Virus record (IMG/VR): IMGVR_UViG_3300037419_003079
Strand: one strand, 5' to 3'
DNA length: 64,000 nucleotides
Source of the DNA: a virus
Taxonomy: Duplodnaviria; Heunggongvirae; Uroviricota; Caudoviricetes
Below the pieces are notes generated by a model. The model did not search any database and was not told the origin of the DNA. It saw nothing but the letters and a program-made list of their open reading frames with translations. This document shows, piece by piece, positions 12,634 through 62,794 of this stretch; the first letter of the stretch is position 1, and each line of letters begins with the position of its first letter. The position numbers and the translations under genes were made by a program.

Positions 12634-12646
12634 GCTACATTCCTCC

Positions 12647-13685: not shown

Positions 13686-13695
13686 GGACAAATTC

Positions 13696-14421: not shown

Positions 14422-14443
14422 CTCCTTTGCATATTATAATTGT

Positions 14444-14472: not shown

Positions 14473-14486
14473 GGGGTGTCCCTGAG

Positions 14487-14516
14487 TAAAATAAAAGAGA
14501 GGCTAAATGCCCCTCT
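14487..14516 (-). terminator. weak terminator after MBL-fold gene
   Basis: AGAGG-N9-CCTCT stem followed by a U-rich tract (CUUUUAUUUUAC) on the minus-strand RNA. Confidence 0.3.
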
Positions 14517-15809: not shown

Positions 15810-15823
15810 GATAATCCTCCTTT

Positions 15824-17309: not shown

Positions 17310-17343
17310 TTAACCACACCTTTTTATTTTATATTTCATTTAT

Positions 17344-17372
17344 ATTATAAACTAAAAACTAAAAAAAGTCAA
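17344..17372 (-). promoter_or_regulatory. sigma-A consensus promoter (TTGACT-17-TATAAT)
   Basis: Reverse complement reads CCTTGACTTTTTTTAGTTTTTAGTTTATAATATAAATG. Confidence 0.75.
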
Positions 17373-17380
17373 GGTCTATC

Positions 17381-17409
17381 TTGATTTAGTTGTTAGTATA
17401 TATTATAAT
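17381..17409 (+). promoter_or_regulatory. divergent sigma-A promoter (TTGATT-17-TATAAT) for the S1-domain gene
   Basis: CTTGATTTAGTTGTTAGTATATATTATAATAGC. Back-to-back with the minus-strand promoter. Confidence 0.7.
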
Positions 17410-17465
17410 AGCAACAAGTAGCGAAGGTTGCTTGTCCCACAAACTAAATGAGGAGGAATGTCACA

Positions 17466-38638: not shown

Positions 38639-38730
38639 GAAGGTAAAGGGTAGGGTTAGGTTTTCAGGTGAACTATACCCTTCCCTATTTTTTATATAAA
38701 CGTACAAATTTTAAGAAGGAGGTTAAAGAG

Positions 38731-44700: not shown

Positions 44701-47700
44701 AAAAGCTATCAAAAGAGTCATGGGCTAACTGCTGACGGTATTGTAGGTTCTAAAACTTGGAGTTCATTAGGTATAGGTGGAGGTTCATCTTCTTCAAGTA
44801 CATCAGGTGTTGGAAAAGGTGGAATGGCAGTACTTAATAGTCTAGTTAATAAATCTGCTTCTCAAGGAGGTCTAGGATATTCTTGGGGTGGAGGTCATGA
44901 TAAAGGAGATTGGGATTCATTTATCAAAAAAGCTAAAGCTGACTGCTCAGGACTTGTTCAACATTTCTATAGAGAATTTGCAGGAGTAGAATTAGGAACT
45001 GGTTCGTCTAATAGCATGTGGCAAAATAGCCAAGGTAAAAGGATTACAAATAAAGCAGACCTACAAGTTGGTGATGTAGTCTATTTTGGTAGTGGAGGCA
45101 AAGTAACTCACACTGGTATCTATGCAGGAAACGGTCAATACATTGGTATGAACAGTGGAGGTCCTAATAAGAGTGGAGCACCACTTAAAAAGGACGCATT
45201 ACGAAGCGACTTTGTTGGAGGCAAAAGATATGACGGTGCTAATGCTAGATTAACATCAGGAGGCAGTGTTGCAGGTGCTCTAGGTGCAGATGTGCCAACA
45301 GTAGCACAGATGATTAAAACTGCTTTTGGAATGTTTAAAGAGGCAATCGAGGCTGAAATGGCTATAAACAATGTTGCAACAATTAAAGAGTCATACAATA
45401 AAGACAAGACATTGGGTTATGGTCATGGTAATATCCGTGATGTACTAGGTACAACTGGTAGATTAGGTGCTTATGATAGAAACTATCAAGCTAGAGAAGA
45501 AATCTATGACGCTAAGTACGGTAATGTAGAGCAAATGAAAGCACTTTCTAAAACTCGTGCTCAATATGTTAAGGACGCTAATAGTGCATTGAAGGCAGGT
45601 AAAACTGACGAATATAATGCGAATAAAGAGGCTGTATCTTCTATTGACAAACTTATTGCTACTTTAAAAGAAAACAATAAGAAATTAGACGAGTGGGATA
45701 AAGAGTTAGTAAAAGCACTTCAAGGAGACCCTAGATATAATGCTAGTAATGCAGGTTACTACATAAAAGGTGGGTACAATAAGTTAGCTACTATGCAAGA
45801 CGGAACTACTGATTACTATCGTACAGTTGAAGAACTTAATGGTATGAATAATCAGTACATGACGACTAAGAAACGATTATCAGTAATGGGTGAATTTTGG
45901 AATACAACAGGTCTTGAAACTGGTCACTACAATGCAGTAAAGAGAAAGTCAGACCAAGAGGACATCAATGTTGCGTTTGTTAAACTGAAAGAAATTCAAA
46001 AGGTTTTAAATTCATTCGCTCAAGGAACTCAGAATTGGTACTCTACTCTTGAAGATGTAGTTGCAGTATATCAAGAACTTCGTGAACTTGATGAAAAGAG
46101 ACTTGAAAATGCTAAGGCATACTTTGAGATGACTGGTCAAGGTGCTCAAACATATATTAATCAACAAGCATACCTGAATAGCAAAAGTTACTCTGAAAAC
46201 AGAAGAAACCTTAATGTTGCTAAACAAACCCTTACTAATGACAAACTGAAAAGAGCGTCAGGTGCTAAAGGTATGGACGAAAATCAACAACTGGCTACAC
46301 TACAAATTATAGCAGGTTTGCAAGACGCTTTAATTAGTCAAATGAATGAGTATCGTCAAGCTGTTATTGGTGCTTTTAAAGCAGGTGCTATGTCTATTCA
46401 AGAGTACATAGATAGAATGTCTGACCTTCGTGATGTGCAAAATGAACAGAAAGAAAATGCTCTTAAAATGATTGATTCTATCTCTCAAGGTTTTGAGCAA
46501 TCCCTGTCAAATGCACTAGCAAGTGGATTCATGGGCAACATGGATTCTACTCAAGGTTTCATAGATGGTATCAAGCAGACATTAGCAACAACTATAGCTT
46601 CTCAACTATCAGCTACGCTACTTAATAACACTGGTCTACAGAAAGTTATTAATGACTTAATCACTTCGGTAACTACTGCGGCTACAACTGGAAACCCTGA
46701 TGATATTGCTAATATGTTTAACAATAACAACTTCGGAGACCAAATTAATAACGCACTAGCACCGTTCCTACCTTTAATCGAACAAATTGTTGCCTCAACA
46801 GATGGTATATTCTCTATCATGAAAGACCAACTGTTTAATGCACCACAAGGATTCAAAATTGACCAATACTTATATGACCAAGCTAAAGGTAAGAGTTTTG
46901 AAGGTGTTAAGAACTGGCAACAAAATGGTGAAACTAATGAGGCAGGTTCTCCTATTGGAGGAGTTGGAAGTAATACTCCTATAGTTACACCACCGGGAAC
47001 AACACCGGGAGGAGTTCCGGGAGGTACATCTAAACCACCAACAGGGACACCGGGTTCAACTGGTGGAACACCTAACACTGGTAAGGGTGGAGCAGGAGCA
47101 CCTGATAGTGGAAGTGCTGTTAAGAATCCTACAACTGACAACTCTAAGGTTAATACACCTCCTAAATCTTCGGGTGGCAAAGGTTCATCAGGCTCAGGTC
47201 ATAATCATGGGACTGTTAACAAAGGAGATAGAGGTGAGGCTGTTAAGGAAATCCAAAGGGCTGTAGGAGTTAAGGCAGACGGTATCTTTGGTTCTGATAC
47301 TGAAAGAGCTGTTAAGGCTTACCAAAAGAAACACGGACTTAAAGCAGATGGTGTAGTTGGTAAGGACACTTGGGCTGTTATTCATAAGGGTAACGGTGGA
47401 AGTAGTTCGGGTAGCAAAGGTAATTCTAATTCAGGTAGCAAAGGAACTACTAAGACTACTAAGCAAGCACTTAATTTCCGTAGTAGTCCGGGAGGAAAGG
47501 TAATGAGTGTATTACCTAAAGGTGCTAAGGTAAATTACCTAGGAATGGAAAAAGGTTGGGCGAAAGTAAGCTACAAAGGTAAGACAGGTTATGTTGGTAA
47601 AGATTATATTTATCATACTGGTGGTATCGCAGGAATGATGAATTTTGCTAATGGTCAACAACTTAAAGCGAATGAGATTCAAGCTATTATGCAAAAAGGT

Positions 47701-47937
47701 GAGATAGCATTACAACCTAAGCAATTAGCAACTTTACTTGGTAACACAGTACCTAAAGCAACTGCTGAGGGCAACGGTGCAGGAATCAATATCAATGTCA
47801 ATGTAACTGTTGAAGGTGGAGATTATGACCAAAAAGGAATCGAAAAAGTTGTCGAAACATCTGTTGAAAAAGCTATGACTGAGTTCAAGCGTCAACAAAG
47901 ATTAGGTAACTTATCATGGAAAGGAACTTCCTACTAA
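38731..47937 (+). CDS. tape measure protein with lytic transglycosylase, 2x PG-binding, NlpC/P60 and SH3b domains
   Basis: Start refined to the ATG at 38731 (AAGGAGG RBS); 3,068 aa. SLT-like GIDPMFLASIAVQETGG. PG_binding_1 twice (KELQKALGVNADGIFGSATEKAVKSYQ and VKEIQRAVGVKADGIFGSDTERAVKAYQ). NlpC/P60 Cys-His (ADCSGLVQHF ... VTHTGIYAG). C-terminal SH3b-like domain. Confidence 0.9.
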   Translation: MAGKDFKYIINTELKLNTGSLKKLLEDVKDVDTSIRNHFNKTGKGGIKLPISIDKGASLNNLQSEVKAVITNFNRSQAPKIKIKMELDNKSAEALKQQVDNVKHHLNNINNSKENVNIKTSLKVDKGEKEKVQKQVGDIKATMTVGLKIDQNDLRVVKGQIESLRQEVVNTSRTRTTRNGEVVGSFRDHVNDRTASVGSRSTADKDLLNAKAQAQAEKDMASARRQNAQAQKTELQVEQAITKEKEKQAKLDRENTNLFKMRDQSTRRLTKAQDTLTQLESKANGSNWRTLSTNDQKALSGQLDTYRKKVEKFQRERDKIDNAILNQLPNNYYNRKPLVDPMNATRGRVVMNTNSNVQAQIQSQIKAQRLAEQQAQKEIERAHKQADALNRKYDQDRARQQQQARRDAEWNGAVHRYGGNRQKTILDDEMVLRNPDASKNDKLEALERLKQNAGGLAREMNQNLTRSFEVFNRNADGTISRTRTAQYEFTRFGDAVDRSNKFMSTLRNTMQYAGITTAFMAMGQGIQIAVQSMIDFEAQMSRIQLLTTDLRDGGLNQAYSGFGYSKNNIKHNTRRDVSNLSQKYGMSATDTVMPVYQQVMARSELIKGNGDKPSPVLANKITDQILKYSAITLGPNAGADDVNRISQDMLSLYQGLYKGKGQQHVYDMDRFVDFMTLMNGSGVNTNNIMDAMSEVAPDAIKKGIDPRRVAGMLGAYNLSDSDSSGSNMTTVAKTFFGGLARYKDSESIQSGLKTLGIDTTQNYSQEELLDLVVKNYKGLSDTQKESVSRDLSSVNGKGISQAPKIQKFLDASGSEYAETFKKNMTSTGLADNALDTYLKTAKVQFGQLKQELTETVELLAELGALDGLKALLGGFKVAVQTVNGFLDIIVRLGDASEKIFGFNIPKYVTQILALAGAFKLVTATMKKFQLGTGLLQGGSSLIGALTQGEMITRASFNGRTQRKVNVEVPHTGKGSGVGNVIGQAVGWVLMGGNPFKRGANVAKAGEVGGNVATNLFSKLGTSLKGLLPILGRFAGILLRLSAIGAVIGTAVWVGKKLWDMNQKHEANVRKGEFKNFNKVYGGGEEDKEKLAKDLNTWKDWNDKNKTVIVSRNGSFHGNPMPSSEPPKKNKMPKEIEKLQKQFSEMGITYSTVAGLNGNNTSTIAYNAEGKDGKIYKQHFNADDKGGWKDMIDTLGAKGLDKDAQIAEKWKIANNEAIKYQTELGIINDLTEKFNRTMNRLGYDMSKIDFNFMGAENSSSASIAKINLINGAMSDLSGTITELTDKGNHFKEQAGIYDTKITGQRNKIIKGGLMSKAEMDDLDQTYKLAYDSGNADTITNQYEVTDKTRDKLKKAGMSKKDIEKELAKRYAVSEYLSYKQSNAGFVDADKETEAQILQTNMAILERQQALKQLTAQLLVSQSQIDVFNAKISAIQFGTGKAKTLLDLSNTDEEKIKRSGDLLKSQSTELSAYRAQLNSVYAQMSRIKAQNGGQDFSIDTLYNPGENGLSAEQNAYKQLLEQQYSIHDNINSTTVAMKEQADQVKEMVLNSDKYADVWERVQNRIQLVKDLNNEIASIKTDLSLVNNFSNIRSAVTGGSYIQDRNSRLEGIRDRGLDGYEKIMTSLKTYAGDEQKLVEAYDEINKSMGGEFDNAFIQPLKDLIQNDFTKAGNLISDGAGKLDQVLTYWANNITSGLLTQQSQNFQSDLAGTTGTGGSVIPGFTGGINTKNATDAEKLDAYITQQFGYKKGTREFNSMKKQMQASMTPAEIKKEVNRGTISVGNNKAVADYTEKINSYFSKTGRTKLQGTGNMFVQAGAKYGIDPMFLASIAVQETGGKSGVINGAYNVGNIKGTGKANAEWNGTKWVNPGDGLTYRKYGSLQLGINDLARLLKDVYISQGYDTIPKINSKYAEDPNWKYGVASIYSSMSGTSKESLLGGTTMSALGGGGGTSVSSSYGTIRKGSKGASVKELQKALGVNADGIFGSATEKAVKSYQKSHGLTADGIVGSKTWSSLGIGGGSSSSSTSGVGKGGMAVLNSLVNKSASQGGLGYSWGGGHDKGDWDSFIKKAKADCSGLVQHFYREFAGVELGTGSSNSMWQNSQGKRITNKADLQVGDVVYFGSGGKVTHTGIYAGNGQYIGMNSGGPNKSGAPLKKDALRSDFVGGKRYDGANARLTSGGSVAGALGADVPTVAQMIKTAFGMFKEAIEAEMAINNVATIKESYNKDKTLGYGHGNIRDVLGTTGRLGAYDRNYQAREEIYDAKYGNVEQMKALSKTRAQYVKDANSALKAGKTDEYNANKEAVSSIDKLIATLKENNKKLDEWDKELVKALQGDPRYNASNAGYYIKGGYNKLATMQDGTTDYYRTVEELNGMNNQYMTTKKRLSVMGEFWNTTGLETGHYNAVKRKSDQEDINVAFVKLKEIQKVLNSFAQGTQNWYSTLEDVVAVYQELRELDEKRLENAKAYFEMTGQGAQTYINQQAYLNSKSYSENRRNLNVAKQTLTNDKLKRASGAKGMDENQQLATLQIIAGLQDALISQMNEYRQAVIGAFKAGAMSIQEYIDRMSDLRDVQNEQKENALKMIDSISQGFEQSLSNALASGFMGNMDSTQGFIDGIKQTLATTIASQLSATLLNNTGLQKVINDLITSVTTAATTGNPDDIANMFNNNNFGDQINNALAPFLPLIEQIVASTDGIFSIMKDQLFNAPQGFKIDQYLYDQAKGKSFEGVKNWQQNGETNEAGSPIGGVGSNTPIVTPPGTTPGGVPGGTSKPPTGTPGSTGGTPNTGKGGAGAPDSGSAVKNPTTDNSKVNTPPKSSGGKGSSGSGHNHGTVNKGDRGEAVKEIQRAVGVKADGIFGSDTERAVKAYQKKHGLKADGVVGKDTWAVIHKGNGGSSSGSKGNSNSGSKGTTKTTKQALNFRSSPGGKVMSVLPKGAKVNYLGMEKGWAKVSYKGKTGYVGKDYIYHTGGIAGMMNFANGQQLKANEIQAIMQKGEIALQPKQLATLLGNTVPKATAEGNGAGININVNVTVEGGDYDQKGIEKVVETSVEKAMTEFKRQQRLGNLSWKGTSY

Positions 47938-50094: not shown

Positions 50095-51738
50095 ATGCTT
50101 ACTGCTAGTTCTTTTTATAAAAACATAATTGACTCAGGTACTAATAGGGTATTTGATATAAAAGTAACAATCACTAGAAATGATACAGGAGCACAACCAC
50201 TAGACATATCTGACAGGGTTGTGTCTTATTCAACTCAACAAGATTTCGAGAGTAGAAACGGTAGATTAAATTTAGAACTAGATAACTATGACTATCAACT
50301 GTCTCCTTTAAACAGAATCAGTTCATTTAATCTTGACGCAGGAGTGTATGACCCATTGTTAGATTCTAATCACAAAGTAGAACTGTACGAGGGACTACTT
50401 GTTAATGGTAGCTTTGAATACATTAAAAAGTTTGTTGGGTATATAGGTGACGAAATAAGCGTAAGTTCATCTCCAACAATACAATTATCTTGTCGTGATA
50501 AATCTAAGCTAATGCAAGATATATACATATATCAAGGTCCTAGTTACTCACTTATGTTGGTGGAAGATGTAATACAAGACATGATTAACGAATTTATGCC
50601 ATTCAATCAAATGGTGATTTTGCAAGTTCAAGACCCAACTCAGTATATGATTGGAAGACCTGATGGAGCGTACACTGCAAAAGATACAAATCTTTGGGAC
50701 GCTTGCCAGTTGCTCGCAGATTCAGCTAGTCAAGAACTTAGATTCTTAGAAGATGGAACTTTAATAATGAGAAAAGTAGATAGAGATTTTTCTGATAAAA
50801 CTCCTAATCTAAGACTCGATTTATCAAATTTAATATCTGATGACATGTCTATAAGTGACGCTGATGTTCGCAATCATATAGTGGTAAAAGTACAGGGATA
50901 TGACCCTATAACAGCCAAAGATATTGACTCGATAAACAAGTATGGAAGAAGATATATGGAAGTAACGAGAAGTATGTCTGACATAATAACTGATGTTTCT
51001 CAAGCACACGAATTAGCAGAGAACATATTGAGGGATTTAAGATACGCAAATCCAACTGAAAGTGCTGAGTTGCCACTACACCCACTTGTTCAAGTTGGAG
51101 ACATAGTGACTATCACGAATCCTAGATTAGGGACTAATTCAATAAACGATATATTTAAGGTAGTTAGTGTATCAAATAATTACACGAAAGACAACAAAAG
51201 AACTCGTCTTGAATTAATAGGTCATGATAAATTCCTGTCAGACCCACTTGCTCTAACAAACCCACCAACAGGACTTACATATGTAATGCAAAAAAGAACG
51301 ATTCAAAACTATAAAGGCTCAGGTTGGTTTGGATATGAGAAAGAACAATATTTTCCTATGTTAAAATGGACACCGCCAACAAAAGATGTTAACAATGTTG
51401 CACTGCCTCCTAACTTCGGAGGATACATAATAGAGAGAGCAACGCTGATAGACTTATTAGGTAAAAATCTAACGGGAACATATAGGTGGACTACTATAGC
51501 CTCTATACCTTCATACATAGGAGCACTAGATAAAAAAATAGACTATTTCTATGACTATTCAGTTTCATCAGTTATTGATAAATACATAAAATTAGGTGCT
51601 ACGGGAAATAGCGTAACTGTTAAGTATAGAATATGTGCTGTAAATAGCCAAGGTAAAAAGACAGCAAAAACAGCAGAGATGTCAGTAGTAGTTAGCTATC
51701 CTAAATATAAGGACGCTCAAGGAAATTACTTAAATTAA
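50095..51738 (+). CDS. tail-associated protein (Tal/baseplate hub-like, putative)
   Basis: 547 aa. GGAGGTG RBS. Assigned by position. Confidence 0.45.
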   Translation: MLTASSFYKNIIDSGTNRVFDIKVTITRNDTGAQPLDISDRVVSYSTQQDFESRNGRLNLELDNYDYQLSPLNRISSFNLDAGVYDPLLDSNHKVELYEGLLVNGSFEYIKKFVGYIGDEISVSSSPTIQLSCRDKSKLMQDIYIYQGPSYSLMLVEDVIQDMINEFMPFNQMVILQVQDPTQYMIGRPDGAYTAKDTNLWDACQLLADSASQELRFLEDGTLIMRKVDRDFSDKTPNLRLDLSNLISDDMSISDADVRNHIVVKVQGYDPITAKDIDSINKYGRRYMEVTRSMSDIITDVSQAHELAENILRDLRYANPTESAELPLHPLVQVGDIVTITNPRLGTNSINDIFKVVSVSNNYTKDNKRTRLELIGHDKFLSDPLALTNPPTGLTYVMQKRTIQNYKGSGWFGYEKEQYFPMLKWTPPTKDVNNVALPPNFGGYIIERATLIDLLGKNLTGTYRWTTIASIPSYIGALDKKIDYFYDYSVSSVIDKYIKLGATGNSVTVKYRICAVNSQGKKTAKTAEMSVVVSYPKYKDAQGNYLN

Positions 51739-51754: not shown

Positions 51755-54700
51755 ATGAGTAAGTTTAACAACAGATACTTAAAATATTCAACAAACACAA
51801 ATGACACCTACGCTGATTACGGTGAAGTAGTAAGTGTAATTAGTGACAAAATAGTTAATCTAGATATGGGTGGAACAGGGTACATTCTAGAGGCTGTTAA
51901 CTGTGATAATTCATATATACCTAAATTAGGTGATTGGGCTACTGTTGAATGGAGAAATGGTCAGCCATTAGCAAAAGGTGGAACTAGCATGTCTACAGGA
52001 CTGCGAGACATCAATGATAATGTTACTATTATTTCTACAAGTGACATAGCTAGTGGTGTAGTCAACTCAGACCACATCAGAACAAATACGATAGAGGCTA
52101 GACACATTACTGCTGAATCTATTCAAGCAAACCACATTTCAGCAAACTCTATTAATGCAAACCACATTACTGCTAACGCTATTACTACTGTTCAGTTGTC
52201 TGCTAATAGTATCACGACTGACAAGATACAAGCAGGTGCGATTCAAGCACAGAATATTCAAGCAGGAGCAATAGGTGCAACGCAAATTAGTGCTAACTCC
52301 ATTAACGCAACGCATATCACAGCAAACGCTATTCAAACTCAACATATTTCAGCAAACGCTATTCAAGCAGGACAAATAAGTGCTAACGCTATCCAAACTC
52401 AACATATCTCGGCAAACACTATTACTGCTAGTCAGATTAAAGTTGACGCTATCAATGCTAGCCATATTTCTGCTAACTCCATAACTTCTAGTGAGATTTC
52501 TGCGAACGCAATCCAATCAGTTCACATTAGTTCTAATGCTATCAATTCAAACCATATTAATGCAGGAACTATTAATTCAGGTCATATTAGTGCAAATGCA
52601 ATTCAATCACAACATATTTCAGCAAACAGTATTGACGCTAGCCATATTAAAGCAGGGGTAATTAATGCTACACTAATCTCTGCTAACGCTGTTCAAGCAC
52701 AACACATTTCAGCAGGAAGTATTACATCTACACATATCAGTGCTAATGCAATACAATCTCAACATATCAGTGCAAACAGTATTCAAACTAATCACATCTC
52801 TGCTAACTCAATAACTGCTAGTAAGATTAGTTCAGATTCAATCTTTGGATACCATATTGTTGCTAATAATATTACTGCAAGTCATATTACTGCAAATGCG
52901 ATTCAAGCACAACATATATCTGCAAATAGTGTTCAATCTGCTCATATTAGTGCAGGCTCTATTAATGCAGGTCATATCGTTTCAAATGCGATTCAATCAA
53001 ATCACATTTCTGCTAATTCAATTCAAGCAAGTCATATAACAGCGAATGCAATCCAAACGCAACACATTTCAGCTAATACGATTGTTGGTAGTCAAATTAA
53101 AGCTGATACGATTAGTGGTAATCATATCACTGCTAACACTATCCAAGGTAAGCATATTCAAGCTGACACAATTAGTGGAAACCACATTACTGCAAATAGT
53201 ATTGATACTAAGCATGTTAAGGCAGGAAGTATTACTGCTACACAAATTTCTGCTAACTCTATTACTTCTAGTCACATCTCTGCTAATAGCGTTCAGTCTC
53301 AGCATATCTCGGCTAACTCAATTCAGTCAAGTCATATCTCAGCTAACTCTATTAATGCAGGTCATATTATCGCTAACTCAATTCAATCTAGTCATATTAG
53401 TGCAAATTCTATTCAATCAGGACACATTTCTGCTAACTCTATTCAGACTCAACATATTAGTGCAAATACAATCACTGGTGGAATGATTAAATCTAATGAG
53501 ATTTCAGGTAATCACATTCAAGCAGGAAGTGTAGACACAGACCATTTGACGGTGGGAAGTAGAAAAGAAGGATTGCTAGGACAATACTTTACATATAACT
53601 CTGCAAGTGGAAATAGTAAATTCCAAGTTTACAAGGGTAGTCAAATAGACCCTACTATTAACTTCTCATGGGGAACAGGTTCTCCTGCTATTGTAGGTCA
53701 GAATGATAGTTTCTCAGTAAGATGGCAAGGATTCATCTATGCACCTGAGACAGGGACTTACTCATTCCATTTAACTGCTGATGATTTAGGAAAAGTAGTT
53801 GTCAATAACACTGTTGTTGTAAATCAACTTTCTTATTCAGGTGGGGTAGAGCAAACAGGGACTATTTCTCTTACACAAGGAAACTGGTATCCTTTCTTAG
53901 CAGAAATGACAGAAGGTACTAGTGGAGCAATGGCAATAGTAAAATGGACAAAACCATCTCTAGTAAAAGAAGTTGTTCCTTCTAAATATTATACACAAGG
54001 TAACACTGTAATTGATGGTCAAACTATTACTACTGGAAGTATTACTGCCTCTGCAATTCAAGCAGGTACAATTACTGCTCAATCAGGTATTCTAGCAAAT
54101 GCAGTTATTCAAACAGCTAATATTGCTGACGGTGCAATTACAAATGCCAAGATTGGTAACGCTGAAATCAAAACTGCTAATATAGCAAGTGGTAATATCA
54201 CTAACGCATTGATTCAAGACGCTACTATCCAATATGCTAAAATAGCAAGTGTAAACGCTGATACAATTACAGTTGGCAAAATAACTGGTACTCAAATTAG
54301 TGGTAGCACTATCGAAGGTCAGAATATCAAAGGTAATACAATATCAGGTAATCACATCGTAGCTAACTCCATTGATTCGCTACATATCAAGGCAGGTGCT
54401 ATTACTACTACAGAACTTTCTGCACAATCTATTACATCAGATAAAATTCAAGCAGGTTCAATTACTGCTGATTCTATTCGAGTTGGTAGTATTAGAGCAG
54501 AACATATTTCTACTGTAGGCTTAGACGCTAACATCGTTTCTGTTTACAATCCAACTACAGGTCAAACATTAATCGGTGGAGGATATTTAAGAGTAGACGG
54601 TTTAGATGTAGGGGTAGTACAATCGGATAACCTAGTTGGTAACGGATTATTCTTAACAGCCTCGTCTGCATTTGGTTCTAAGAGAGATAATCCTTATGGT

Positions 54701-57700
54701 GAGGTATTATTAGGTAATACAAGAGCAGTAGTCGGTGGAAACCAAGTTTGGAAAATCAATGTTACGACAGGGCAAAAAGTTCAAGTAATTGACATTCCTT
54801 CTTCAAAACCTGCTGATGTCTCTATACACCCATCAGGAAATTACGCATATGTAACCGTTCAAGGTGATGATACTGTAGCACAGATTGACTTAGCTACTGA
54901 CTTATTAACCACAAATACATTAAGTGTAGGAAAAGGTCCTAATGTTATTAAGTGGGTAGGAATGAAGTTAATGGATATGAAACACTTCTTAGTCCTTAAC
55001 AGAGACCCTGATGATATGAATGTACCTGATACTTTAAATGTAATTGATTCACCTCCAACATCAGTTAACGCAGATTTATATGTTCATCACTTTATCCCAC
55101 TAGGAAACGGTCCTTATGATTTAGTCGTTGATGACAACATGCAAATCTATGTAACTATGGCTGATGATGGTGACATTGTAGTTATTGACGCTAGTGCACA
55201 TGATTCTTCTACTTGGAAAGTCAAAGGTAGACTACCAATCTCTGCATACGGAACTGATAACTATCATGGAGGACTACCTGCTAACTTTGGATTGAACGAA
55301 GTAACTGGTGGTGACGCTAGCTACCAATATAATGACGCAGGAATGGCAGGAATGGTAGATATGCCGGGTATGTCACATAGTCATGGTGGATACGGTACAT
55401 CAGATGGTTCATTAAAAACATATCAACCACATGGTATTGCATTAAGTTCAGACCCTAACCATTTATATGTAGTTGACAATAAAAATGGAGAATTAGTTGT
55501 AGTAGATAAACTAGGTAACGCACCATATAACGCATTAATAGGTACATCACCTAATGGTTCATTTTCATATGGAATGGATATGCACATGGATATGAGCAGT
55601 GGTGGAACTATGCCGGGAATGGATATGGGATTCGGTCCTAGCCCTGAGCACCTTAAAGAAATGGGTATAGCAAGTGGTGGAGGTCCGGGAACATACCATG
55701 TAAGATATAGAATACCAGTTGGTGACTCACCTGATTTCATCGAAATAATAAACGGTAAAATCTTCGTAACATTAGAAGGCACTGGTGATATTGCTATTAT
55801 TGACGAGCAAAAGATTCTTGACGAGATAGCACTTGATAAGGCTTACTACGGTAACTTCGTTGAAGGTGGAGTATTCGAGAAGTGGAATGTATTCCAACCA
55901 ATGAGAGATGTTAACGCTATTCCTGTTAGAACAATATCTGTAGGTTCTAAACCATCATTTACTGATGTTGCTAATGGAAAGTTATTCGTTTCACTATCAG
56001 GTCAAAACCAAGTGGCTGTAATTAATCCTACTACAGAAACAGTAACTCAGTACATTAATACTGGTGCTAATCCAAAAGGTTTCGCTTTCACACCTGACAA
56101 CCAATATATGTATGTTGCTAACTTTGGTGGTTCAGGAGACCTGTCAATGGTTTATCCTAAAGGAGAATACATTGGTGACGCTTTCTTAGGTCTAGAAGGT
56201 GGGGTAGTATACCAAGGTGCAGAATGGTGGACTCCTGATAGAAGCGATTGGGTGTATGACGCTAGTGGAAATGTTAAGTCAAGGTCTACTGTAGAGTTTC
56301 GTATCAACGAACCATTCTTGAATGAGGGTGGATATGCAAAGCTTACTACTTTCGGAAAAGACTATCAATATGCACAAATTGAGCAAGACATTTACAATGT
56401 ATCAAACTACTCAAATGGTGATAATAAACTTAATGTTAAGGCAGAAAAGTTAATACAAGGAACTGGAACTGGAAATATATTTTATCCTAGAAATGAATGG
56501 TTAAACAGTCCTGTGCCAAGCAACATCAACATTGGTAATGTAGTGTCAGGAAGTACAATTTTAACTCCTGCAAACCCATCTAAGTACACTATTTATTACG
56601 GACAAAATGCAAGAATTGAGTTCTCTGCAAATACTCTTGTTAGTGGGAACTGGATTGAGGCAGATTATACTTGTAAGAATGACATATATTTCAAACCACA
56701 TAACGGTTCAGCACTTGTAGCTATCGAGAACGGTTCTTCTCCTAACTTCAATGTTACTATGGAAATAGATGAATTTGTTCCTAAGTTCGTTGTTTATGAC
56801 AATCAATTAACTGCTACTACATTCACACCAACAGCAGATGGTATAAACCAAACATACACAGGCTTAGAGTATTCTACTATAACGAATAGAGCATTAGGAA
56901 TGACTGTAACATCGTCAGTAGCACCAACTTCGGGAGGGGCACTATCTAAGATAGTAGACGGTGGAGAAGTAATGTCTGTTCATGGTGACAACACTGCTAA
57001 TCCTTTACCTTCTTCTACTGGAACTCTTACATTCCCATCAGGAAATCAATGGGTTAAAGTAGACCTTGGAAAAGTTTATATGGTAGGTATGATACAAGTT
57101 GCTCATAGTTATGGTCTTGATAGAGTATACCAAGGAACTAAAACTGAGGTTTCAGAAGATGGAGTTACTTGGACTACTATTTATGATAGTGCAGTATCAG
57201 GAACATATAGTGAAAAAATTTCTTACCATGCTCCTCATAACCATACGCATTACGCTAAAACTTTTACATTTGGTGCAAAACCAGTAAGATATGTACGAGA
57301 TTGGGCTAACGGTTGGAAAAGTGGAGATGGATTAACATCAGGAAGTACTAACAACTGGACAGAGATTCAAGTCTTTGGTGATTGGGAGTTAGAAAAAGGA
57401 TATACATATCCTGCAAACTCTGAATTAGCAGGTCAACAAATAGCTACCAACGGAAAAGGATTTGTATCTACAGACATATCTAAAGCATATATCGCAGTAG
57501 ACATTCCTATCGAATACACTACTTGGTGGTACATGTCATATATCGTAGGTCCTGACTTTGGTAGAATAAAAATTGATATGCCTACAGCTATGGGTGGAAG
57601 TCACTTCTTAGAGTTAGAATCTCCATTCGTTAACAAAGTAGCACACAGACATATCATGCCTTTCACTCCTTCTCAGAACATAAAAGCAAATGACGCTATG

Positions 57701-60307
57701 AATATAAAAGCAGGTAAACATAGAGCAGTAATCATGCAAGATAGTGGTAGAGTAACTGTAGATAGATTAAGGTTTGAGGACTACCAGTATCTTACAAGGT
57801 CATCTCTATTGATACCTTCTCAGTCAACATCTACTATTTTCAGAAGAAACAAACTTGTTGCAGAACAAGCAAAATGGTATCAAGGAATGGGAGTGCAGTC
57901 TACAGAAGGTGCATTTGATAAGCCTAGGGTAAACCCTGACACAGGTATTCCTGATAAGTCAGTGCCTATCAAATACAGAATGAGATTTAGAACTGAGTTA
58001 AATGCTAACGGAACTATTGAGGAACGAGGAACAGCATACTTCACTTCTGCAATCTTTGAAACTGGTAAACTTTCTACTCATTGGAGAAGGTCAGAATCGG
58101 TTGATAGCTACCCTGCTCACAAGATTGAGAAATGGGACGGAAACCAACCTCATAAAACTGGTATACAACATGACCACTTAGCCAACGGTGCTGTAAGAGG
58201 TACTAAGATTATGCCTAATACAATCATGGATTGGCATATCAGTAACTACGCTAGAATACAAGAGCATAAGTTGGAATTAAATCACCCAACACATGCACAC
58301 GGTAAGTATCAAGTTCTAGCAGGTCAAGGACCCATGGGAACAGACTTATATCTATGGAAAGACAACTCAGACTTGTTGAACTCTATGGACGGTTGGGCAG
58401 GAACTAGTGGAAACTACGGAACTGGAAATACAGTTTCTCGTGGAGACCATAAGCATGATGATTTGTATCTATCCTTAGCAACTGGTGGAGTAATGAAAGG
58501 ACACATAGATTTCGGTCCGAATAATGCACTAGGATTGAAGTTCGGGTCTGTTGCTAATGGTGCTGTAGGATATATTAGACAAAGTGCTACACAAGGTCAG
58601 TTAGACTTAGGCTCAGATGATTTAATTAATTTCTATGAATCAGACTCTAATACTCTAGCAGTTTCAATTTCTACTAATGGTAAAACATTAGACGCTAAGG
58701 GTGGTCTACTAGAAAATGGAGTTGCATTATCTAGTAAGTATGCACCAATAGCACATGTTGGCTCAGGTGGAAGTGCTCACGCAGTAGCAGTAAGTGGAGG
58801 AGCAAATGGATTTATTGACGGTGCTAACTATGGCAAGCTATTAAGAATCCAAGACAACGCAATCAACCAAACAACTGCTGATGGAAGATATATTCAGTTA
58901 AACGGTAGTACTGGCATACTTAGTGTTGGTGGTGGAGGAGGAGCATTAAGCCTTAAAGCAACATCTACAGACCATATCTATATGGCTATTTACGCAAGGT
59001 CAGGAAACTCTACTCGTTCAGGTTGGTTCGGATATGGAACTAATGGCAATAACACAATGCAAATCACTAATGAAACAAGTGGAAACATAAACATATCAAC
59101 AGTTGGTGGAGGATTAGTTCAAGTAAACGGAAGTACAATTTGGACTAGTGCTAATTTTGACCCTTCTACAAAATCAGATACTACTCATGTCCACGCAGTA
59201 GCAATAAGTGGTGGAGCGAACGGATTTATGAGTGGGTCAGACAAAGCTAAGTTAGATGGTGTTGCTACAAATGCAAACAATTATTCTCACCCTACAGGAG
59301 ATGGAAACCTTCATGTCCCTGCAACTAGCACAACTAACAGTAAAAAGGTATTAACAGCAGGAGCAACAGCAGGAAGTCTATCTTGGGCTAATGTAGATTA
59401 TGCAGATGTAATTAATAAACCTACTACATTTACACCTTCTGCACATACTCATACTGCTAGCAATATTACTGACTTATATAGCAATATCTACACTAAGACA
59501 GAGGTAGACACAGCAGTATCTAATGCAGGAGACATCAAAGCAGGTCAAGCTAACATATTTACTAACACTAATACATTTAACAAAGCAGGATTGGGAATTA
59601 AAATTCAGCCAAGTTCTAGCGTAGCTAATAGCACTAAGTTATTCCAAATTAATAATGCTACTAGTTCAGAAGTATTCTCAGTAAACTATTCAGGTGGTGT
59701 AGTAATAGCAGGAGATTTCACTGTTACTGGTCAACAAATCATTAGTGGTACTACAAATGTAAATGGTGACTATACAATTAGTGGTCAACTAATAGTTGGA
59801 GGAAACTCTACCCTAGGTGACGCTAGTACAGATGTAACGACTGTAAACGGAACTCTTAAAGTACAGAATGGCTCTATTCAAGAAATTGGAAAATATAACG
59901 AAGTACACAGAAGACCGATTTACGGTATTGGAGGAGACCTTCAATTCCAAACTGATAGCACTGTGTTTGATGACATCACAGATTACTACGATTTAAGTTC
60001 TTATGCTCTACCTACAGTTCAAGCAGGTGCTACAAGATATTATCGCTTATATGTAGTTTACAGTGATGATATTACAAGTGCTCAACAAACTGGTGGACAA
60101 AAGGCAACGATAAGAATTGCAGGAGCAACAAATAAGGACTTAGATTTACCGATAACATTCGGATTGGTAAATGGCAGGAGAGATTGGTTTAGTGCTTACT
60201 TCACTGACCTACCAACAGGTAATGGTAAGATTCAAGCTAAACTTGCATTGGCAAACAACAATCTTGGTATTAGATGGATTGAACTTGTGGCTTACGATAA
60301 ATTTTAA
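51755..60307 (+). CDS. giant multi-domain tail fibre/receptor-binding protein (2,850 aa)
   Basis: 47 tandem decapeptide repeats (HISANAIQSQ-type); a PA14 domain (GLLGQYFTYNS ... FSVRWQGFIYAPETGTYSFHL ... DDLGKVVVNN); YVTN beta-propeller-like repeats; Met-rich MDMHMDM/MPGMDMGFGP motifs; a discoidin/F5_F8-C-like domain (VDLGKVYMVGMIQVAHSY); C-terminal HxH fibre repeats (HVHAVAISGGANGF, SAHTHTASNITDL). Confidence 0.85.
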   Translation: MSKFNNRYLKYSTNTNDTYADYGEVVSVISDKIVNLDMGGTGYILEAVNCDNSYIPKLGDWATVEWRNGQPLAKGGTSMSTGLRDINDNVTIISTSDIASGVVNSDHIRTNTIEARHITAESIQANHISANSINANHITANAITTVQLSANSITTDKIQAGAIQAQNIQAGAIGATQISANSINATHITANAIQTQHISANAIQAGQISANAIQTQHISANTITASQIKVDAINASHISANSITSSEISANAIQSVHISSNAINSNHINAGTINSGHISANAIQSQHISANSIDASHIKAGVINATLISANAVQAQHISAGSITSTHISANAIQSQHISANSIQTNHISANSITASKISSDSIFGYHIVANNITASHITANAIQAQHISANSVQSAHISAGSINAGHIVSNAIQSNHISANSIQASHITANAIQTQHISANTIVGSQIKADTISGNHITANTIQGKHIQADTISGNHITANSIDTKHVKAGSITATQISANSITSSHISANSVQSQHISANSIQSSHISANSINAGHIIANSIQSSHISANSIQSGHISANSIQTQHISANTITGGMIKSNEISGNHIQAGSVDTDHLTVGSRKEGLLGQYFTYNSASGNSKFQVYKGSQIDPTINFSWGTGSPAIVGQNDSFSVRWQGFIYAPETGTYSFHLTADDLGKVVVNNTVVVNQLSYSGGVEQTGTISLTQGNWYPFLAEMTEGTSGAMAIVKWTKPSLVKEVVPSKYYTQGNTVIDGQTITTGSITASAIQAGTITAQSGILANAVIQTANIADGAITNAKIGNAEIKTANIASGNITNALIQDATIQYAKIASVNADTITVGKITGTQISGSTIEGQNIKGNTISGNHIVANSIDSLHIKAGAITTTELSAQSITSDKIQAGSITADSIRVGSIRAEHISTVGLDANIVSVYNPTTGQTLIGGGYLRVDGLDVGVVQSDNLVGNGLFLTASSAFGSKRDNPYGEVLLGNTRAVVGGNQVWKINVTTGQKVQVIDIPSSKPADVSIHPSGNYAYVTVQGDDTVAQIDLATDLLTTNTLSVGKGPNVIKWVGMKLMDMKHFLVLNRDPDDMNVPDTLNVIDSPPTSVNADLYVHHFIPLGNGPYDLVVDDNMQIYVTMADDGDIVVIDASAHDSSTWKVKGRLPISAYGTDNYHGGLPANFGLNEVTGGDASYQYNDAGMAGMVDMPGMSHSHGGYGTSDGSLKTYQPHGIALSSDPNHLYVVDNKNGELVVVDKLGNAPYNALIGTSPNGSFSYGMDMHMDMSSGGTMPGMDMGFGPSPEHLKEMGIASGGGPGTYHVRYRIPVGDSPDFIEIINGKIFVTLEGTGDIAIIDEQKILDEIALDKAYYGNFVEGGVFEKWNVFQPMRDVNAIPVRTISVGSKPSFTDVANGKLFVSLSGQNQVAVINPTTETVTQYINTGANPKGFAFTPDNQYMYVANFGGSGDLSMVYPKGEYIGDAFLGLEGGVVYQGAEWWTPDRSDWVYDASGNVKSRSTVEFRINEPFLNEGGYAKLTTFGKDYQYAQIEQDIYNVSNYSNGDNKLNVKAEKLIQGTGTGNIFYPRNEWLNSPVPSNINIGNVVSGSTILTPANPSKYTIYYGQNARIEFSANTLVSGNWIEADYTCKNDIYFKPHNGSALVAIENGSSPNFNVTMEIDEFVPKFVVYDNQLTATTFTPTADGINQTYTGLEYSTITNRALGMTVTSSVAPTSGGALSKIVDGGEVMSVHGDNTANPLPSSTGTLTFPSGNQWVKVDLGKVYMVGMIQVAHSYGLDRVYQGTKTEVSEDGVTWTTIYDSAVSGTYSEKISYHAPHNHTHYAKTFTFGAKPVRYVRDWANGWKSGDGLTSGSTNNWTEIQVFGDWELEKGYTYPANSELAGQQIATNGKGFVSTDISKAYIAVDIPIEYTTWWYMSYIVGPDFGRIKIDMPTAMGGSHFLELESPFVNKVAHRHIMPFTPSQNIKANDAMNIKAGKHRAVIMQDSGRVTVDRLRFEDYQYLTRSSLLIPSQSTSTIFRRNKLVAEQAKWYQGMGVQSTEGAFDKPRVNPDTGIPDKSVPIKYRMRFRTELNANGTIEERGTAYFTSAIFETGKLSTHWRRSESVDSYPAHKIEKWDGNQPHKTGIQHDHLANGAVRGTKIMPNTIMDWHISNYARIQEHKLELNHPTHAHGKYQVLAGQGPMGTDLYLWKDNSDLLNSMDGWAGTSGNYGTGNTVSRGDHKHDDLYLSLATGGVMKGHIDFGPNNALGLKFGSVANGAVGYIRQSATQGQLDLGSDDLINFYESDSNTLAVSISTNGKTLDAKGGLLENGVALSSKYAPIAHVGSGGSAHAVAVSGGANGFIDGANYGKLLRIQDNAINQTTADGRYIQLNGSTGILSVGGGGGALSLKATSTDHIYMAIYARSGNSTRSGWFGYGTNGNNTMQITNETSGNINISTVGGGLVQVNGSTIWTSANFDPSTKSDTTHVHAVAISGGANGFMSGSDKAKLDGVATNANNYSHPTGDGNLHVPATSTTNSKKVLTAGATAGSLSWANVDYADVINKPTTFTPSAHTHTASNITDLYSNIYTKTEVDTAVSNAGDIKAGQANIFTNTNTFNKAGLGIKIQPSSSVANSTKLFQINNATSSEVFSVNYSGGVVIAGDFTVTGQQIISGTTNVNGDYTISGQLIVGGNSTLGDASTDVTTVNGTLKVQNGSIQEIGKYNEVHRRPIYGIGGDLQFQTDSTVFDDITDYYDLSSYALPTVQAGATRYYRLYVVYSDDITSAQQTGGQKATIRIAGATNKDLDLPITFGLVNGRRDWFSAYFTDLPTGNGKIQAKLALANNNLGIRWIELVAYDKF
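52070..53550 (+). repeat. about 47 tandem 30-bp (decapeptide) coding repeats within the giant fibre gene
   Basis: Periodic xIxANxIQxx units create low-complexity spurious ORFs in other frames (52139..52345, 52845..53039, 53046..53486, 53069..53305). Confidence 0.85.
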
Positions 60308-60319: not shown

Positions 60320-62794
60320 ATGGCAAAGTACTATGACATAGATAATGATGTAAGAATAAATGGCAAGCTAACTGTCAATGGGGATACTACTATCCCCTCC
60401 TCCTTTAATTTATTAGTAGGAGGAAATATAACAGGAAACACTATAAGTGGTGGAACAATACAAGCGTCCACTATTAATGGAACGAATGCTACACTAACTA
60501 ATGTTACTTCATCAGGAACAGTATCAGGAAGTTCAATAAAGGGTGACGGTTCAACATTAGTTGTTAATAGCGTCACTGCAAATGGTGGTAATGTTCCAAT
60601 ATCAAATGGTTGGGCATACACACATGAAAATAAAACTGGTGCACTTGGTCATATCCCGAATGGAGGAAGTGCAACAACTTTCCTTCGTGGAGATGGAACT
60701 TGGGCAACTCCTACAGACACAGACACCTATGTAAATGGTTTATCAAGTACAGCAGGAGGCAATGGAACTCTTACTGTAAGCAGAAATACTGGTGGAAATT
60801 TAACAATAAATTTATCTCATACCCACCCATTCAGCCAAGTAACAAGCACACCAACAACATTGAGTGGTTATGGTATTACGGATAGTGCACCTAAGTATAT
60901 AGCCTCAAACGGTACAGCATATGGAAGATTCACTGAGACAGGATTTACTCCACTACCTATGTTTGGAGATGAAATACGATTTAGAAAGCCTACTTTAGTT
61001 GAATATTTTGATGGAAGTTCTTGGGTAACTTGGTCAACAACTGCATTTGATATACTTACAGATGGAAAAGGGAATACAAGTGTTAATATAGATTATACAC
61101 ATAAAAATTTCAGGGTAACATATGATGTTGACGCTTATAATGGTGCAGACTTAATTTGGGTTTCATCTGCCTATAATGCTCCGGGTGGAACTCTACTTAT
61201 TGAGTCAACTAGTGACAATTGGGCAACAACAAATGTTCGCAGTAGCAATTCTCCTTTGGGGGCTTATTGGCGATACACATCAATGGCAAGTGTCTCAGGT
61301 GATACAAAAGTTAGATTTACATTTGACTGTGGTTTGTCCAGTGGAAATACCTTCAACTTAAACCAAATAATGATGATGACAAGTAGACCAGCAGAGCAGG
61401 GTGGCTCTATGGAGACTTTATTCCCTTTTGTTTGGGATATAAATAAAAATTTATCAACAGTAGGAAATATAACTGCTAATAGTTTTACTGGTAGTGGAAA
61501 CAGTCTAACTGTAAGTGGAACTCCTGCTAATGGAAGTTTGAACCCTATAAATTCAGGTTGGGCTTACACTCATACAAATACTACTGGAATAGGTTCACAT
61601 GTTCCTACAGGTGGAACAACGAGCAACTTCCTTCGTGGAGATGGAACTTGGCAAATACCTGTAGATACAAATAACTATCTAACAGGAGTATCAAGCACAG
61701 CAGGTGGAAATGGTACTATAACATTTACTAGACAAGGATTATCAAGTCTTACCCTAGACGCAAGCCATACTCATTCTCAATATGTTCTAAATAACACTGA
61801 TAATCAAGTGATGAACACTGGATTGAATGTTAAAGGTAATATGTTTGTTGGTACTACTGGAACAGCAGGAAGTCTTTATGTTAGAAACTCTAGTAATACG
61901 AATGTAATTCAACTAGTTGGAGATACAAGTGCGAAAGGTGCAGGGATAAAAGCACAAATTAATGCAAATGGTGACGCTATATTTGATGGTATTCTTAGTG
62001 GTAATTCATTAAAAGTCACTGATACTACTATAGTATCAAACTTAAATGCAGAAATGGTTGGGGGAACAAAAGAATCCAAAATAGCTAAGAATCTAAGTAT
62101 ACGAGAATTAGGTGGAAGTGGAGTATTCACAGGATTAAATATTACTCAGCAAACAGTTCCTAATATGACAGTGTTAATAAATTCAGGTGTCGTATACACT
62201 GACACTGGAATGAGAGTTGATATACCTAATACAAGTATATCTCTAGCTACTTCGAGTGCTACATATGATAGAAAAGATGTCATATATATTCAAGGTTCTA
62301 GTGCAGGTGCTAATGAAGGTGTTCCAACAGTTGCAACTGGTACTCCTGCCTCAACACCTATTGAACCATCAATACCTTCTGACGCTATTAAATTAGCAGT
62401 TGTTTCTGTTCTTAGAAACATAGGTAGCATACAAGATGTTCACATAACTGACACAAGAGTTTGGAAGATGTTGAGATATAGAAGTACAACAAATGATTTA
62501 TGTGTAGAGAAATTATCTCCAAATATATATTCTTCAAATGTCGCTACAGCTAATTTCGATAAGCCTATAAAAGGTTCAACATTCGCAAGTTCTATTGTTA
62601 TAACAGCAGGAAATACATCTGCAACATGGAATCATAATCTTGGATTAGGAACTAATTACACAATAACATTCTCATGGAACAATGCAGAACCTCATGTGTA
62701 CTGGTCAAATAAAGCCACTAATTCAATAGTGTTAAACCTTGATGATATATGTGAGTCAGATGTGACAATCGACTGTCAGATAATGGCATATTAA
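60320..62794 (+). CDS. tail fibre protein with internally duplicated HxH fibre-repeat module
   Basis: 824 aa. Duplicated ~80-aa module NGWAYTH.N.TG ... FLRGDGTW ... SSTAGGNGT ... SHTH at aa ~95-175 and ~410-490. Confidence 0.8.
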   Translation: MAKYYDIDNDVRINGKLTVNGDTTIPSSFNLLVGGNITGNTISGGTIQASTINGTNATLTNVTSSGTVSGSSIKGDGSTLVVNSVTANGGNVPISNGWAYTHENKTGALGHIPNGGSATTFLRGDGTWATPTDTDTYVNGLSSTAGGNGTLTVSRNTGGNLTINLSHTHPFSQVTSTPTTLSGYGITDSAPKYIASNGTAYGRFTETGFTPLPMFGDEIRFRKPTLVEYFDGSSWVTWSTTAFDILTDGKGNTSVNIDYTHKNFRVTYDVDAYNGADLIWVSSAYNAPGGTLLIESTSDNWATTNVRSSNSPLGAYWRYTSMASVSGDTKVRFTFDCGLSSGNTFNLNQIMMMTSRPAEQGGSMETLFPFVWDINKNLSTVGNITANSFTGSGNSLTVSGTPANGSLNPINSGWAYTHTNTTGIGSHVPTGGTTSNFLRGDGTWQIPVDTNNYLTGVSSTAGGNGTITFTRQGLSSLTLDASHTHSQYVLNNTDNQVMNTGLNVKGNMFVGTTGTAGSLYVRNSSNTNVIQLVGDTSAKGAGIKAQINANGDAIFDGILSGNSLKVTDTTIVSNLNAEMVGGTKESKIAKNLSIRELGGSGVFTGLNITQQTVPNMTVLINSGVVYTDTGMRVDIPNTSISLATSSATYDRKDVIYIQGSSAGANEGVPTVATGTPASTPIEPSIPSDAIKLAVVSVLRNIGSIQDVHITDTRVWKMLRYRSTTNDLCVEKLSPNIYSSNVATANFDKPIKGSTFASSIVITAGNTSATWNHNLGLGTNYTITFSWNNAEPHVYWSNKATNSIVLNLDDICESDVTIDCQIMAY

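Follow-up and report, generated by a model that had tools for sequence, protein, structure and literature searches.

The 64,000-nucleotide stretch of viral DNA analysed here, referred to as the window (IMG/VR record IMGVR_UViG_3300037419_003079; Caudoviricetes), contains an uninterrupted open reading frame (ORF) of 2850 amino acids (aa) on the plus strand at positions 51755–60307. The locus raises the question of what so large a product contributes to a phage tail, and whether the methionine-rich segments within it are likely to bind metal. An initial annotation, made from the sequence alone, had described a receptor-binding fibre with six components: decapeptide repeats, a PA14 domain, a YVTN-type β-propeller, Met-rich motifs, a discoidin-like module and HxH fibre motifs. 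Every one of these was present in the single 2850-aa ORF. The protein, a linear string of modules that belongs to a family of giant fibres, probably serves a large uncultured siphovirus-like phage as its long fibre for host recognition.

The ORF starts with ATG and is preceded by a ribosome-binding site, AAAGGAG, 8 nt upstream. The window is a phage structural module that includes the terminase, portal, major capsid protein and a 3089-aa tape measure, and the tape measure gene is followed in order by genes of 337, 360 and 547 aa, the 2850-aa ORF and an ORF of 824 aa. The best matches of the protein among PHROG families of named function were tail fibre and tail proteins. Searches with tblastn matched only the repeat and PA14 part, within tail proteins of very diverse phages; the matches lay under annotated 'host specificity protein J' in DSS3_VP1, DSS3_PM1 and Paracoccus phage Pkon1, and in DSS3_VP1 the repeat region lies inside a J protein of 2575 aa. 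The ORF therefore combines similarity to annotated J proteins with a location downstream of the tape measure and the small tail genes, and its position in the tail module, the PHROG families and the tblastn matches all upheld its assignment as a tail-fibre or receptor-binding protein.

Modules and integrity of the 2850-aa protein

The modules of the protein, together with the hub gene that precedes it, are given below in window positions.

50095–51738, + strand: tail hub protein, 547 aa, gpJ-like (phrog_1887, a tail protein family)
51755–52042, + strand: N-terminal domain, aa 1–96, inferred from its position to be the baseplate attachment; conserved ..YxDYGEVVSIINDK..GDWVxIEWRNGQP.. in P0007, P0008, P0012, P0014 and P0024–26; no Pfam match
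52043–53542, + strand: array 1 (fibre stalk), 50 decapeptide units, aa 97–596, in exact 10-aa register; PHROG tail-fibre families phrog_892 and phrog_26466
53564–53974, + strand: PA14 domain, aa 604–740, between the two arrays
54017–54514, + strand: array 2, period-5/10 repeats, aa 755–920
54515–54742, + strand: conserved neck, aa 921–996, with the motif ..GLDAxxxxVYNxxTGxTLIGGGYLRVDGLDVGVVQSDNL.. found in 21/21 family proteins examined
54743–56122, + strand: seven-bladed YVTN-type β-propeller, aa 997–1456
55247–55414, + strand: propeller loop L1, aa 1165–1220, containing MAGMVDMPGMSHSHGGYG and joining blade 3 to blade 4
55529–55687, + strand: propeller loop L2, aa 1259–1311, containing MDMHMDMSSGGTMPGMDMGFGP, between strands 3 and 4 of blade 4
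56123–56971, + strand: conserved region, aa 1457–1739, with invariant alignment columns and the near-invariant NEPFLNEGGY; no Pfam or PDB match
56972–57409, + strand: discoidin / F5_F8 type C (CBM32-like) module, aa ~1740–1885, with the His-rich loop YHAPHNHTHY at aa 1824–1833
57410–58144, + strand: conserved domain(s), aa 1886–2130, with an AHRHIM motif; no Pfam match
58145–59479, + strand: distal HxH shaft, aa 2131–2575, with PTHAHG (2178–2183), RGDHKH (2229–2234), THVHAV..GGANGFMSGSDKAKLDG (2477–2502) and KPTTFTPSAHTHT (2555–2567)
59480–60307, + strand: C-terminal tip module, aa 2576–2850 plus stop codon, presumed to be the receptor-binding end; ..GDLQFQTDST..IKYIEVIAYD.. in most relatives; no Pfam or PDB match

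The three globular modules named in the initial annotation were confirmed by profile and structure searches. The PA14 domain scored 63.3 bits against Pfam PF07691 (cutoff 24) over profile positions 2–142 of 147, and matched the PA14 domains of PDB entries 6qdi and 6qe7 at E 1e-28. The discoidin module was above the cutoff for both F5_F8_type_C (PF00754, 37.7 bits, cutoff 28.2) and F5_F8_type_C_2 (PF22633, 36.4 bits, cutoff 27.8) when aa 1751–1900 were scanned; a scan of the whole protein gave 29.6 bits for PF22633, and the CBM32 structure 5zu6 was matched at E 1.4e-3. The propeller matched PDB 1l0q_A in 5 stretches (E 5.7e-18). An AlphaFold2 (AF2) model, built on a family alignment of 15 sequences, contained 28 strands arranged as 7 four-stranded blades with a core predicted local distance difference test (pLDDT) score of 85–97. 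Foldseek placed 1l0q at the top with E 4e-15, followed by Lp49, NirF and YncE, while the NHL repeat profile (PF01436) reached 19.8 bits, under the cutoff of 20, for one repeat only. The best match by both sequence and predicted fold was thus the YVTN propeller of the Methanosarcina mazei S-layer protein (1l0q) and the YncE family, which are likewise seven-bladed; neither the two Met/His-rich loops of 50 aa nor the helical insert of the window protein is found in these cellular propellers.

A family-invariant cluster of His, Asp and Tyr residues was also observed in blades 2–3 at window positions 54956–55090 and 55250–55270 (aa ~1068–1112 and 1166–1172). It comprises D1074, K1076, H1077, D1084, D1087, D1092, D1098, Y1109, H1111, H1112, D1168, Y1170 and H1171, and may represent a conserved metal or active site.

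The 547-aa product scored 22.6 bits against Phage-tail_3, the lambda gpJ-type hub domain, just under the cutoff of 23, and array 2 scored 19.3 bits against Phage_Tail_Tip (cutoff 22), so that neither of the gpJ-type hidden Markov models exceeded its cutoff and both were borderline. Searches of PDB sequences with the 547-aa and 337-aa neighbours gave nothing useful. The order of hub gene then fibre gene is repeated in the related loci L001, L002 and also L003, among them a related contig from a metagenome and a Chengkuizengella axinellae prophage. In J-type proteins such as that of DSS3_VP1 a long fibre built of repeats comes after a Phage-tail_3-like hub, in the same position after the tape measure and small tail genes, and the I-rich repeats of period 5/10 match within annotated J proteins. 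In the window the hub and the fibre are instead separate genes, and lambda J does not contain the string of PA14, propeller and discoidin modules. Read from the gene order and the J matches, the 547-aa and 2850-aa pair would be a split J-type hub plus fibre, with the 547-aa protein as the probable attachment partner.

An ORF of 8.5 kb with long internal repeats might be suspected to result from collapsed or expanded repeats or from a chimeric gene fusion, as such repeats can mislead assemblers, and the homologous gene of L001 is broken by frameshifts. The same 2850-aa product was however recovered from five metagenome contigs, the largest of 166 kb, with no more than one substitution, the identical protein being P0006 and the variant P0156 (S580A). 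As these near-identical contigs were assembled independently and all encode 2850 aa, an artefact is very unlikely and essentially excluded. The repeat units are also only 56% identical at the nucleotide level, and relatives of 2262–3529 aa, one of them in a cultured genome, share a collinear architecture. In L001 (JGI contig Ga0642623_13149, positions 8127–17048) the several frameshifts lie around the Met-rich loops, and an intact close version of the same gene is present in L006 (IMG/VR contig 3300038443_000375), which comes from the metagenome that also gave the window, so that the frameshifts are probably sequencing errors. Taken with the other observations, an assembly origin for the ORF is extremely improbable.

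Stalk repeats and the HxH shaft

Array 1 contains 10-aa units with the consensus H-I-S-A-N-S-I-Q-(A/S)-x, in which position 4 is alanine. Isoleucine, leucine or valine was retained at positions 2 and 7 in 50 of 51 consecutive units (aa 97–596) with zero indels. The initial annotation had counted 47 decapeptides over about 1.4 kb with an exact 30-bp period; the array and its register stood, and the counts were corrected to 50 units and 1.5 kb. The 30-bp units have a mean nucleotide identity of 56% and the longest exact direct repeat is 21 nt. Because the units are so diverged, Tandem Repeats Finder detected the array only as fragments with 68–83% matches. These values make both assembly collapse and frequent unequal recombination unlikely and mark the stalk repeats as old, with diverged DNA. 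The suggestion that copy number expands and contracts by recombination was accordingly retained in part: the number of units differs between relatives (~9–50), and it does not behave as a fast switch, given the 56% identity and the constant length of 2850 aa on all five contigs. Stalk length varies on an evolutionary timescale and not visibly within a population. A nested ORF of 146 aa in another frame of array 1 (53046–53486, + strand) was rejected as a gene and is most likely a by-product of the repeats, whose shifted frame is free of stops.

A further array of approximately 165 aa (aa 755–920), absent from the initial annotation, follows the PA14 domain. It is partly of the canonical pentapeptide-like form A-x-I-x-x, with about 9 canonical pentads at its centre (ANIAD GAITN AKIGN AEIKT ...), and gave weak matches to the designed pentapeptide-derived solenoids 4yfo and 5dn0 (E 5e-4 to 1e-2). 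Array 1 does not fit the pentapeptide-repeat pattern, as its small residue is at i-3 (A-N-S-I) and not at i-2. No Pfam Pentapeptide match was obtained with the whole protein or the arrays, and the Pfam 'Decapeptide repeat region' (PF25296) reached 17.7 bits, far short of the cutoff of 45, whether the whole protein or the array alone was scanned. A literature search for a 'decapeptide repeat' in phage tails returned nothing.

The fold of the arrays was examined using an AF2 monomer model of aa 496–945, which covers the end of array 1, the PA14 domain and array 2. The mean pLDDT was 49, with the PA14 domain at 70–86, and both arrays were drawn as long extended strands with a pLDDT of 30–50. The long β-helical or solenoid stalk of the initial annotation was not supported as a monomeric structure and this reading was dropped; the model argues against a self-contained monomeric solenoid, and a solenoid as such was neither supported nor excluded. 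The extended strands are compatible with an inter-chain β structure formed in a trimer.

The distal part of the protein is rich in HxH motifs. Outside array 1, 9 such motifs were observed compared to 1.06 expected by shuffling, and none of 5000 shuffles reached 9. The two motifs named in the initial annotation as those of the phage fibre repeat were both present, HVH at aa 2478 and HTH at aa 2564. PTHxHG and (R/A)xDHxH occur in 19/19 family members and AHRHIM in 14/19. The KPTTFTPSAHTHT..ITDL motif aligned with PDB 9d93, 'tail collar fibers gp4', on P..F.PS.H.H....TDL (E 1.4e-5); a search for a literature paper describing this entry found none. The iron of T4 gp37 and other fibres sits on the axis of the trimer, held by HxH pairs contributed by three chains (PMC11705849). 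The window protein likewise carries recurrent, conserved HxH motifs in its distal shaft, while T4 gp37 has no counterpart to most of the protein.

These features suggest how the fibre could function. It would be a homotrimer anchored through its N-terminal domain to the J-like baseplate hub, forming the fibre half of a split lambda-J-type protein, and the repeat arrays would form an inter-chain β-structured stalk, with its length determining how far the fibre reaches. The PA14, propeller and discoidin domains would act as lectin-like modules giving reversible, multivalent, low-affinity binding to cell-wall glycopolymers, with specific contact made by the exchangeable C-terminal tip. Structural metal ions would lie on the three-fold axis, bound by the family-invariant HxH pairs of the shaft (PTHxHG and DHxH) in the manner of T4 gp37. 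Recognition of several ligands, as proposed in the initial annotation, may be suggested by the domain content. Some points weigh against this picture: the arrays have no solved homologue and their Pfam Decapeptide score was below the cutoff, and the host is deduced from one prophage plus the tape-measure domains.

Each module, and the overall logic of the fibre, is already known from other phage fibres. The receptor-binding protein Gp45 of Staphylococcus phage phi11 (PDB 5EFV), which also belongs to a siphovirus of a Gram-positive host, has a trimeric stem with His-coordinated iron and β-propeller 'platform' domains thought to bind cell-wall sugar, namely N-acetylglucosamine (PMC4901313). Gp45 is a 636-aa protein with a five-bladed propeller and a helical stem, in contrast to the 2850 aa, seven-bladed YVTN propeller, long Met/His loops and β-repeat stalk of the window protein, and no sequence similarity was found between the two. 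Giant modular fibres of this kind bear on how phages of Gram-positive hosts gain reach and multivalent glycan recognition from interchangeable parts.

Met/His-rich loops of the propeller

The Met-rich strings quoted in the initial annotation were found exactly, at aa 1197–1214 within L1 and aa 1274–1295 within L2. Together the two loops of the window protein contain 12 Met in 109 residues compared to 1.3% elsewhere (p 2.5e-8). The MxM motif was observed 5 times, compared to 0.8 expected (p 4e-4). Only one other segment among all ORFs of the 64-kb window attains 5 Met in 30 aa. The same composition extends to the family: across 15 aligned members the loops contained 5.4% Met, 5.9% His and 23% Gly, compared to 2.3% Met and 2.4% His for the rest of the propeller (p 1e-12 for Met and 8e-15 for His). 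L1 keeps an HxHG(G)YG core in 13/19 members. L2 is hypervariable, with a length of 27–107 aa in the relatives and practically no conserved sequence, and is rich in Met, His, Gly, Pro and Asp; in L008 it reaches 91 aa with 16 Met and 6 His in runs of the MDHGGMDHG type, MMDMDMDHGGMDHG.

Similar inserts occur at other positions of the relatives. A His/Met-rich loop in the discoidin module (YHAPHNHTHY in the window protein) is also found in relatives, which have further Met/His-rich sites in an insert at the start of the discoidin module and in the stretch after the invariant PTHxHG. At this last site P0011 and P0013 read Met-rich MMMDMGGMVMPMWMD and P0018 instead reads Cys-rich TCECVDCTCATDGTCTCGDGCYCS. 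The Cys-rich segment of P0018 (3306 aa) is metallothionein-like, lies at about aa 2770–2800, exactly at the site of the Met runs of P0011 and P0013, and is accompanied by a CC pair in loop L2 of the same protein. A mini-module of 25–30 aa (GGHxH[SM].S...EP.F[ST]....G.H) was observed in both L2 and the discoidin-start insert of the same protein in P0011, P0013, P0015, P0016, P0018, P0021 and P0023. It behaves like a small transposable His-rich hairpin, and the window protein retains only a vestige, GGEVMSVHGD, at aa ~1736–1745. At the DNA level MPGM is present in both Met-rich loops (window 55343–55396 and 55574–55639), where its coding sequence is ATGCCGGGnATG, and L2 contains two copies of GGAATGGATATG; these recurrences suggest small duplications or exchange between the loops.

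The octapeptides of CopA and the ectodomain of Ctr1 resemble the loops of the window protein. Clusters of MxM and MxxM with His in a flexible segment, as in Cu(I)-binding segments, are present in the window protein. In composition and motif style (MxM, MxxM, MDH and HxH runs, flexible Gly-rich segments) the loops are like Met/His-rich copper-binding segments (PMC6155172, PMC3847284), among them the Met-rich segment of CueO (PMC6155172), and like those of PcoA/CopA and Ctr1. They differ from these proteins in having neither homology nor a copper-handling context and in being located on a virion fibre. The description of the motifs as typical of Cu(I)/Ag(I) clusters was thus borne out for their exact presence and enrichment and was not extended by homology to any copper protein.

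A conserved composition with a free sequence, fixed HxH motifs and a Cys substitution point towards metal ligation and are not proof of it. Binding of soft metal ions by the Met/His loops is speculative, with the balance of probability lying slightly against it. The Cu(I)/Ag(I) idea is plausible; it was strengthened by the comparative data, and neither shown nor refuted. Most speculatively, the Met/His/Gly-rich propeller loops and the similar sites in the discoidin module and shaft of relatives would be exposed metal sites of the CueO/PcoA/Ctr1 kind, in which the conserved HxHGGYG would provide a fixed ligand set and the variable Met/His runs a capture antenna. Several observations count against this. 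The loops of P0007 and of L005/L007 contain 0–1 Met, the propellers of P0025 and P0026, which are more distant fibres, are plain and without the loops, and no Pfam or PDB match links the loops to a copper protein, the neighbouring genes being phage tail genes. The loops of the window protein have pLDDT values of 25–31 (L1) and 22–39 (L2) and could be plain disordered spacers. In the model L1 and L2 appear, from the strand order, to emerge on opposite faces of the propeller, so that they need not form one site and a joint L1 and L2 site is disfavoured.

A tentative but realistic alternative is that the loops are disordered low-complexity spacers that drift by small duplications, with no metal and no specific role, and that the fibre works through its lectin-like modules and tip. 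Their low pLDDT, the range of lengths (27–107 aa) with hardly any conserved sequence, the predominance of Gly as the most abundant residue, the relatives with 0–1 loop Met and the short DNA duplications ATGCCGGGnATG and GGAATGGATATG would all be expected of such spacers. Generic disordered linkers are not usually Met- or His-rich, whereas here each residue is enriched ~2.4-fold across 15 diverged proteins (p < 1e-11). The retained HxHG core, the independent appearance of the same composition at other sites, the Cys cluster that takes its place in one relative and the rarity of Met-dense segments in the window also argue against drift. Surface Met residues are established in other proteins as hydrophobic bristles or oxidant scavengers, and the loops might likewise act without metal, either as flexible hydrophobic 'bristles' on the receptor, as in the SRP54 M domain, or as sacrificial scavengers shielding the virion. 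In favour are the flexibility and exposure of the loops in the model and their variable but high Met content. His is however co-enriched, HxH is conserved and P0018 has a Cys-rich replacement, all of which fit metal ligation better than hydrophobic contact or scavenging, and a role of this kind is distinctly unlikely.

It is also rather unlikely that the propeller is an enzyme, for example a metal-dependent depolymerase or lyase acting on a host envelope polymer, with its invariant His, Asp and Tyr residues as the active site. Blades 2–3 do contain many such invariant columns (D-x-K-H, D..D, P-D, Y-x-H-H and D-N-Y-H-G-G), propeller folds serve as phage depolymerases, such as the endosialidases cited in PMC4901313, and the Foldseek matches include lactonases, cd1 nitrite reductase and N2O reductase. 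The closest structures, which are the S-layer protein 1l0q, Lp49 and YncE, are however non-enzymatic, and no enzyme family was matched in Pfam.

Of the readings that involve metal, the broadest is that the giant-fibre family carries exposed soft-metal-binding loops on its receptor-binding modules; the phage would then need copper, or a different thiophilic or imidazole-bound metal, to adsorb or to activate its fibre, or its virions would themselves be copper ligands. This proposal is unlikely as it stands. If true, it would carry the 'Ferrojan horse' idea, which centres on iron, over to copper and represent the first Mets-motif chemistry on a virion. Metal binding by the loops would tie phage adsorption or virion stability to the availability of copper or zinc, and indicate a wider role of tails as metal ligands. 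A limited literature search found no description of Met-rich phage fibres or of such loops on virions, and as far as this search shows the recurrent Met/His-rich, and once Cys-rich, inserts are undescribed on virions.

Family, host and neighbouring genes

Word-indexed protein searches with the propeller and the central region returned almost nothing (5 and 3 matches). The family was obtained by an exhaustive search of 1.84 billion protein representatives with the propeller as the query, which revealed 18 further cluster representatives at 50% identity in addition to the protein itself, with 47–60% identity over the propeller and lengths of 2262–3529 aa. A further 13 related loci were identified in IMG/VR on contigs of 28–264 kb. 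Only one of 185,579 species genomes carries a family member, WP_305990983.1, which is encoded in a prophage of Chengkuizengella axinellae (Paenibacillaceae) with conserved gene order. The fibre family is previously undescribed and rare. The phage is distant from all sequenced phages: its terminase is ~30% identical to theirs, and the fibre gene matched none of 50,697 phage records in a megablast search.

The family is collinear yet modular, with the N-terminal module, stalk length, presence of PA14, loop inserts and C-terminal module swapped or resized between members. Two alternative N-terminal modules were found: one of ~430 aa, and a short one, of which the aa 1–96 domain of the window protein is an example and which is common to the 'short N-terminus' members. 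In the six short-N-terminus members with PA14 this domain starts at aa 190, 192, 255, 304, 406 or 606, which puts array 1 at roughly 9–50 units. Many members have no PA14, and some have extra discoidin or other domains. There are also two alternative C-terminal modules; P0010, P0012, P0015, P0017, P0025 and P0026 carry the one not found in the window protein. P0021 and P0022 have an extra domain of ~200 aa (..YMGYHF..LIGAEW..) in propeller blade 4, just before L2. Pfam scans of this insert and of the ~430-aa N-terminus gave no matches. The family thus provides natural variants with swapped N-terminus, stalk length, PA14, loop inserts and tip, and the presence of a relative in the cultured strain Chengkuizengella axinellae 2205SS18-9 makes direct testing possible.

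A Bacillota host similar to Paenibacillaceae is the most likely, given the Chengkuizengella prophage and the peptidoglycan-hydrolase and SH3-type domains of the tape measures. The tape-measure gene of the window (38668–47937, + strand, 3089 aa) contains two regions that match endolysin PHROGs (aa ~1963–2040 and ~2832–2914), and the tape measures of relatives contain NlpC/P60 and SH3_3 or glucosaminidase domains. The length of the tape measure and its hydrolase domains imply a very long tail and a Gram-positive host.

The 824-aa ORF after the fibre (60320–62794, + strand) has no PHROG or credible Pfam match. In L002 the 824-aa ORF is followed by a Laminin_G_3 protein, and the Chengkuizengella prophage likewise has Laminin_G_3 genes after its fibre; the 824-aa and Laminin_G_3 proteins may be further binding or accessory fibre proteins. 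An ORF of 543 aa between the portal and capsid genes (25213–26844, + strand), an unusual location, matched a PHROG annotated as DNA methyltransferase (E 1e-12). Strand and GC skew switch together at ~17.4 kb (window ~17300–17450), with genes on the minus strand before this point and on the plus strand after it, and a single tRNA-Trp (CCA) is encoded on the minus strand at 10869–10942.

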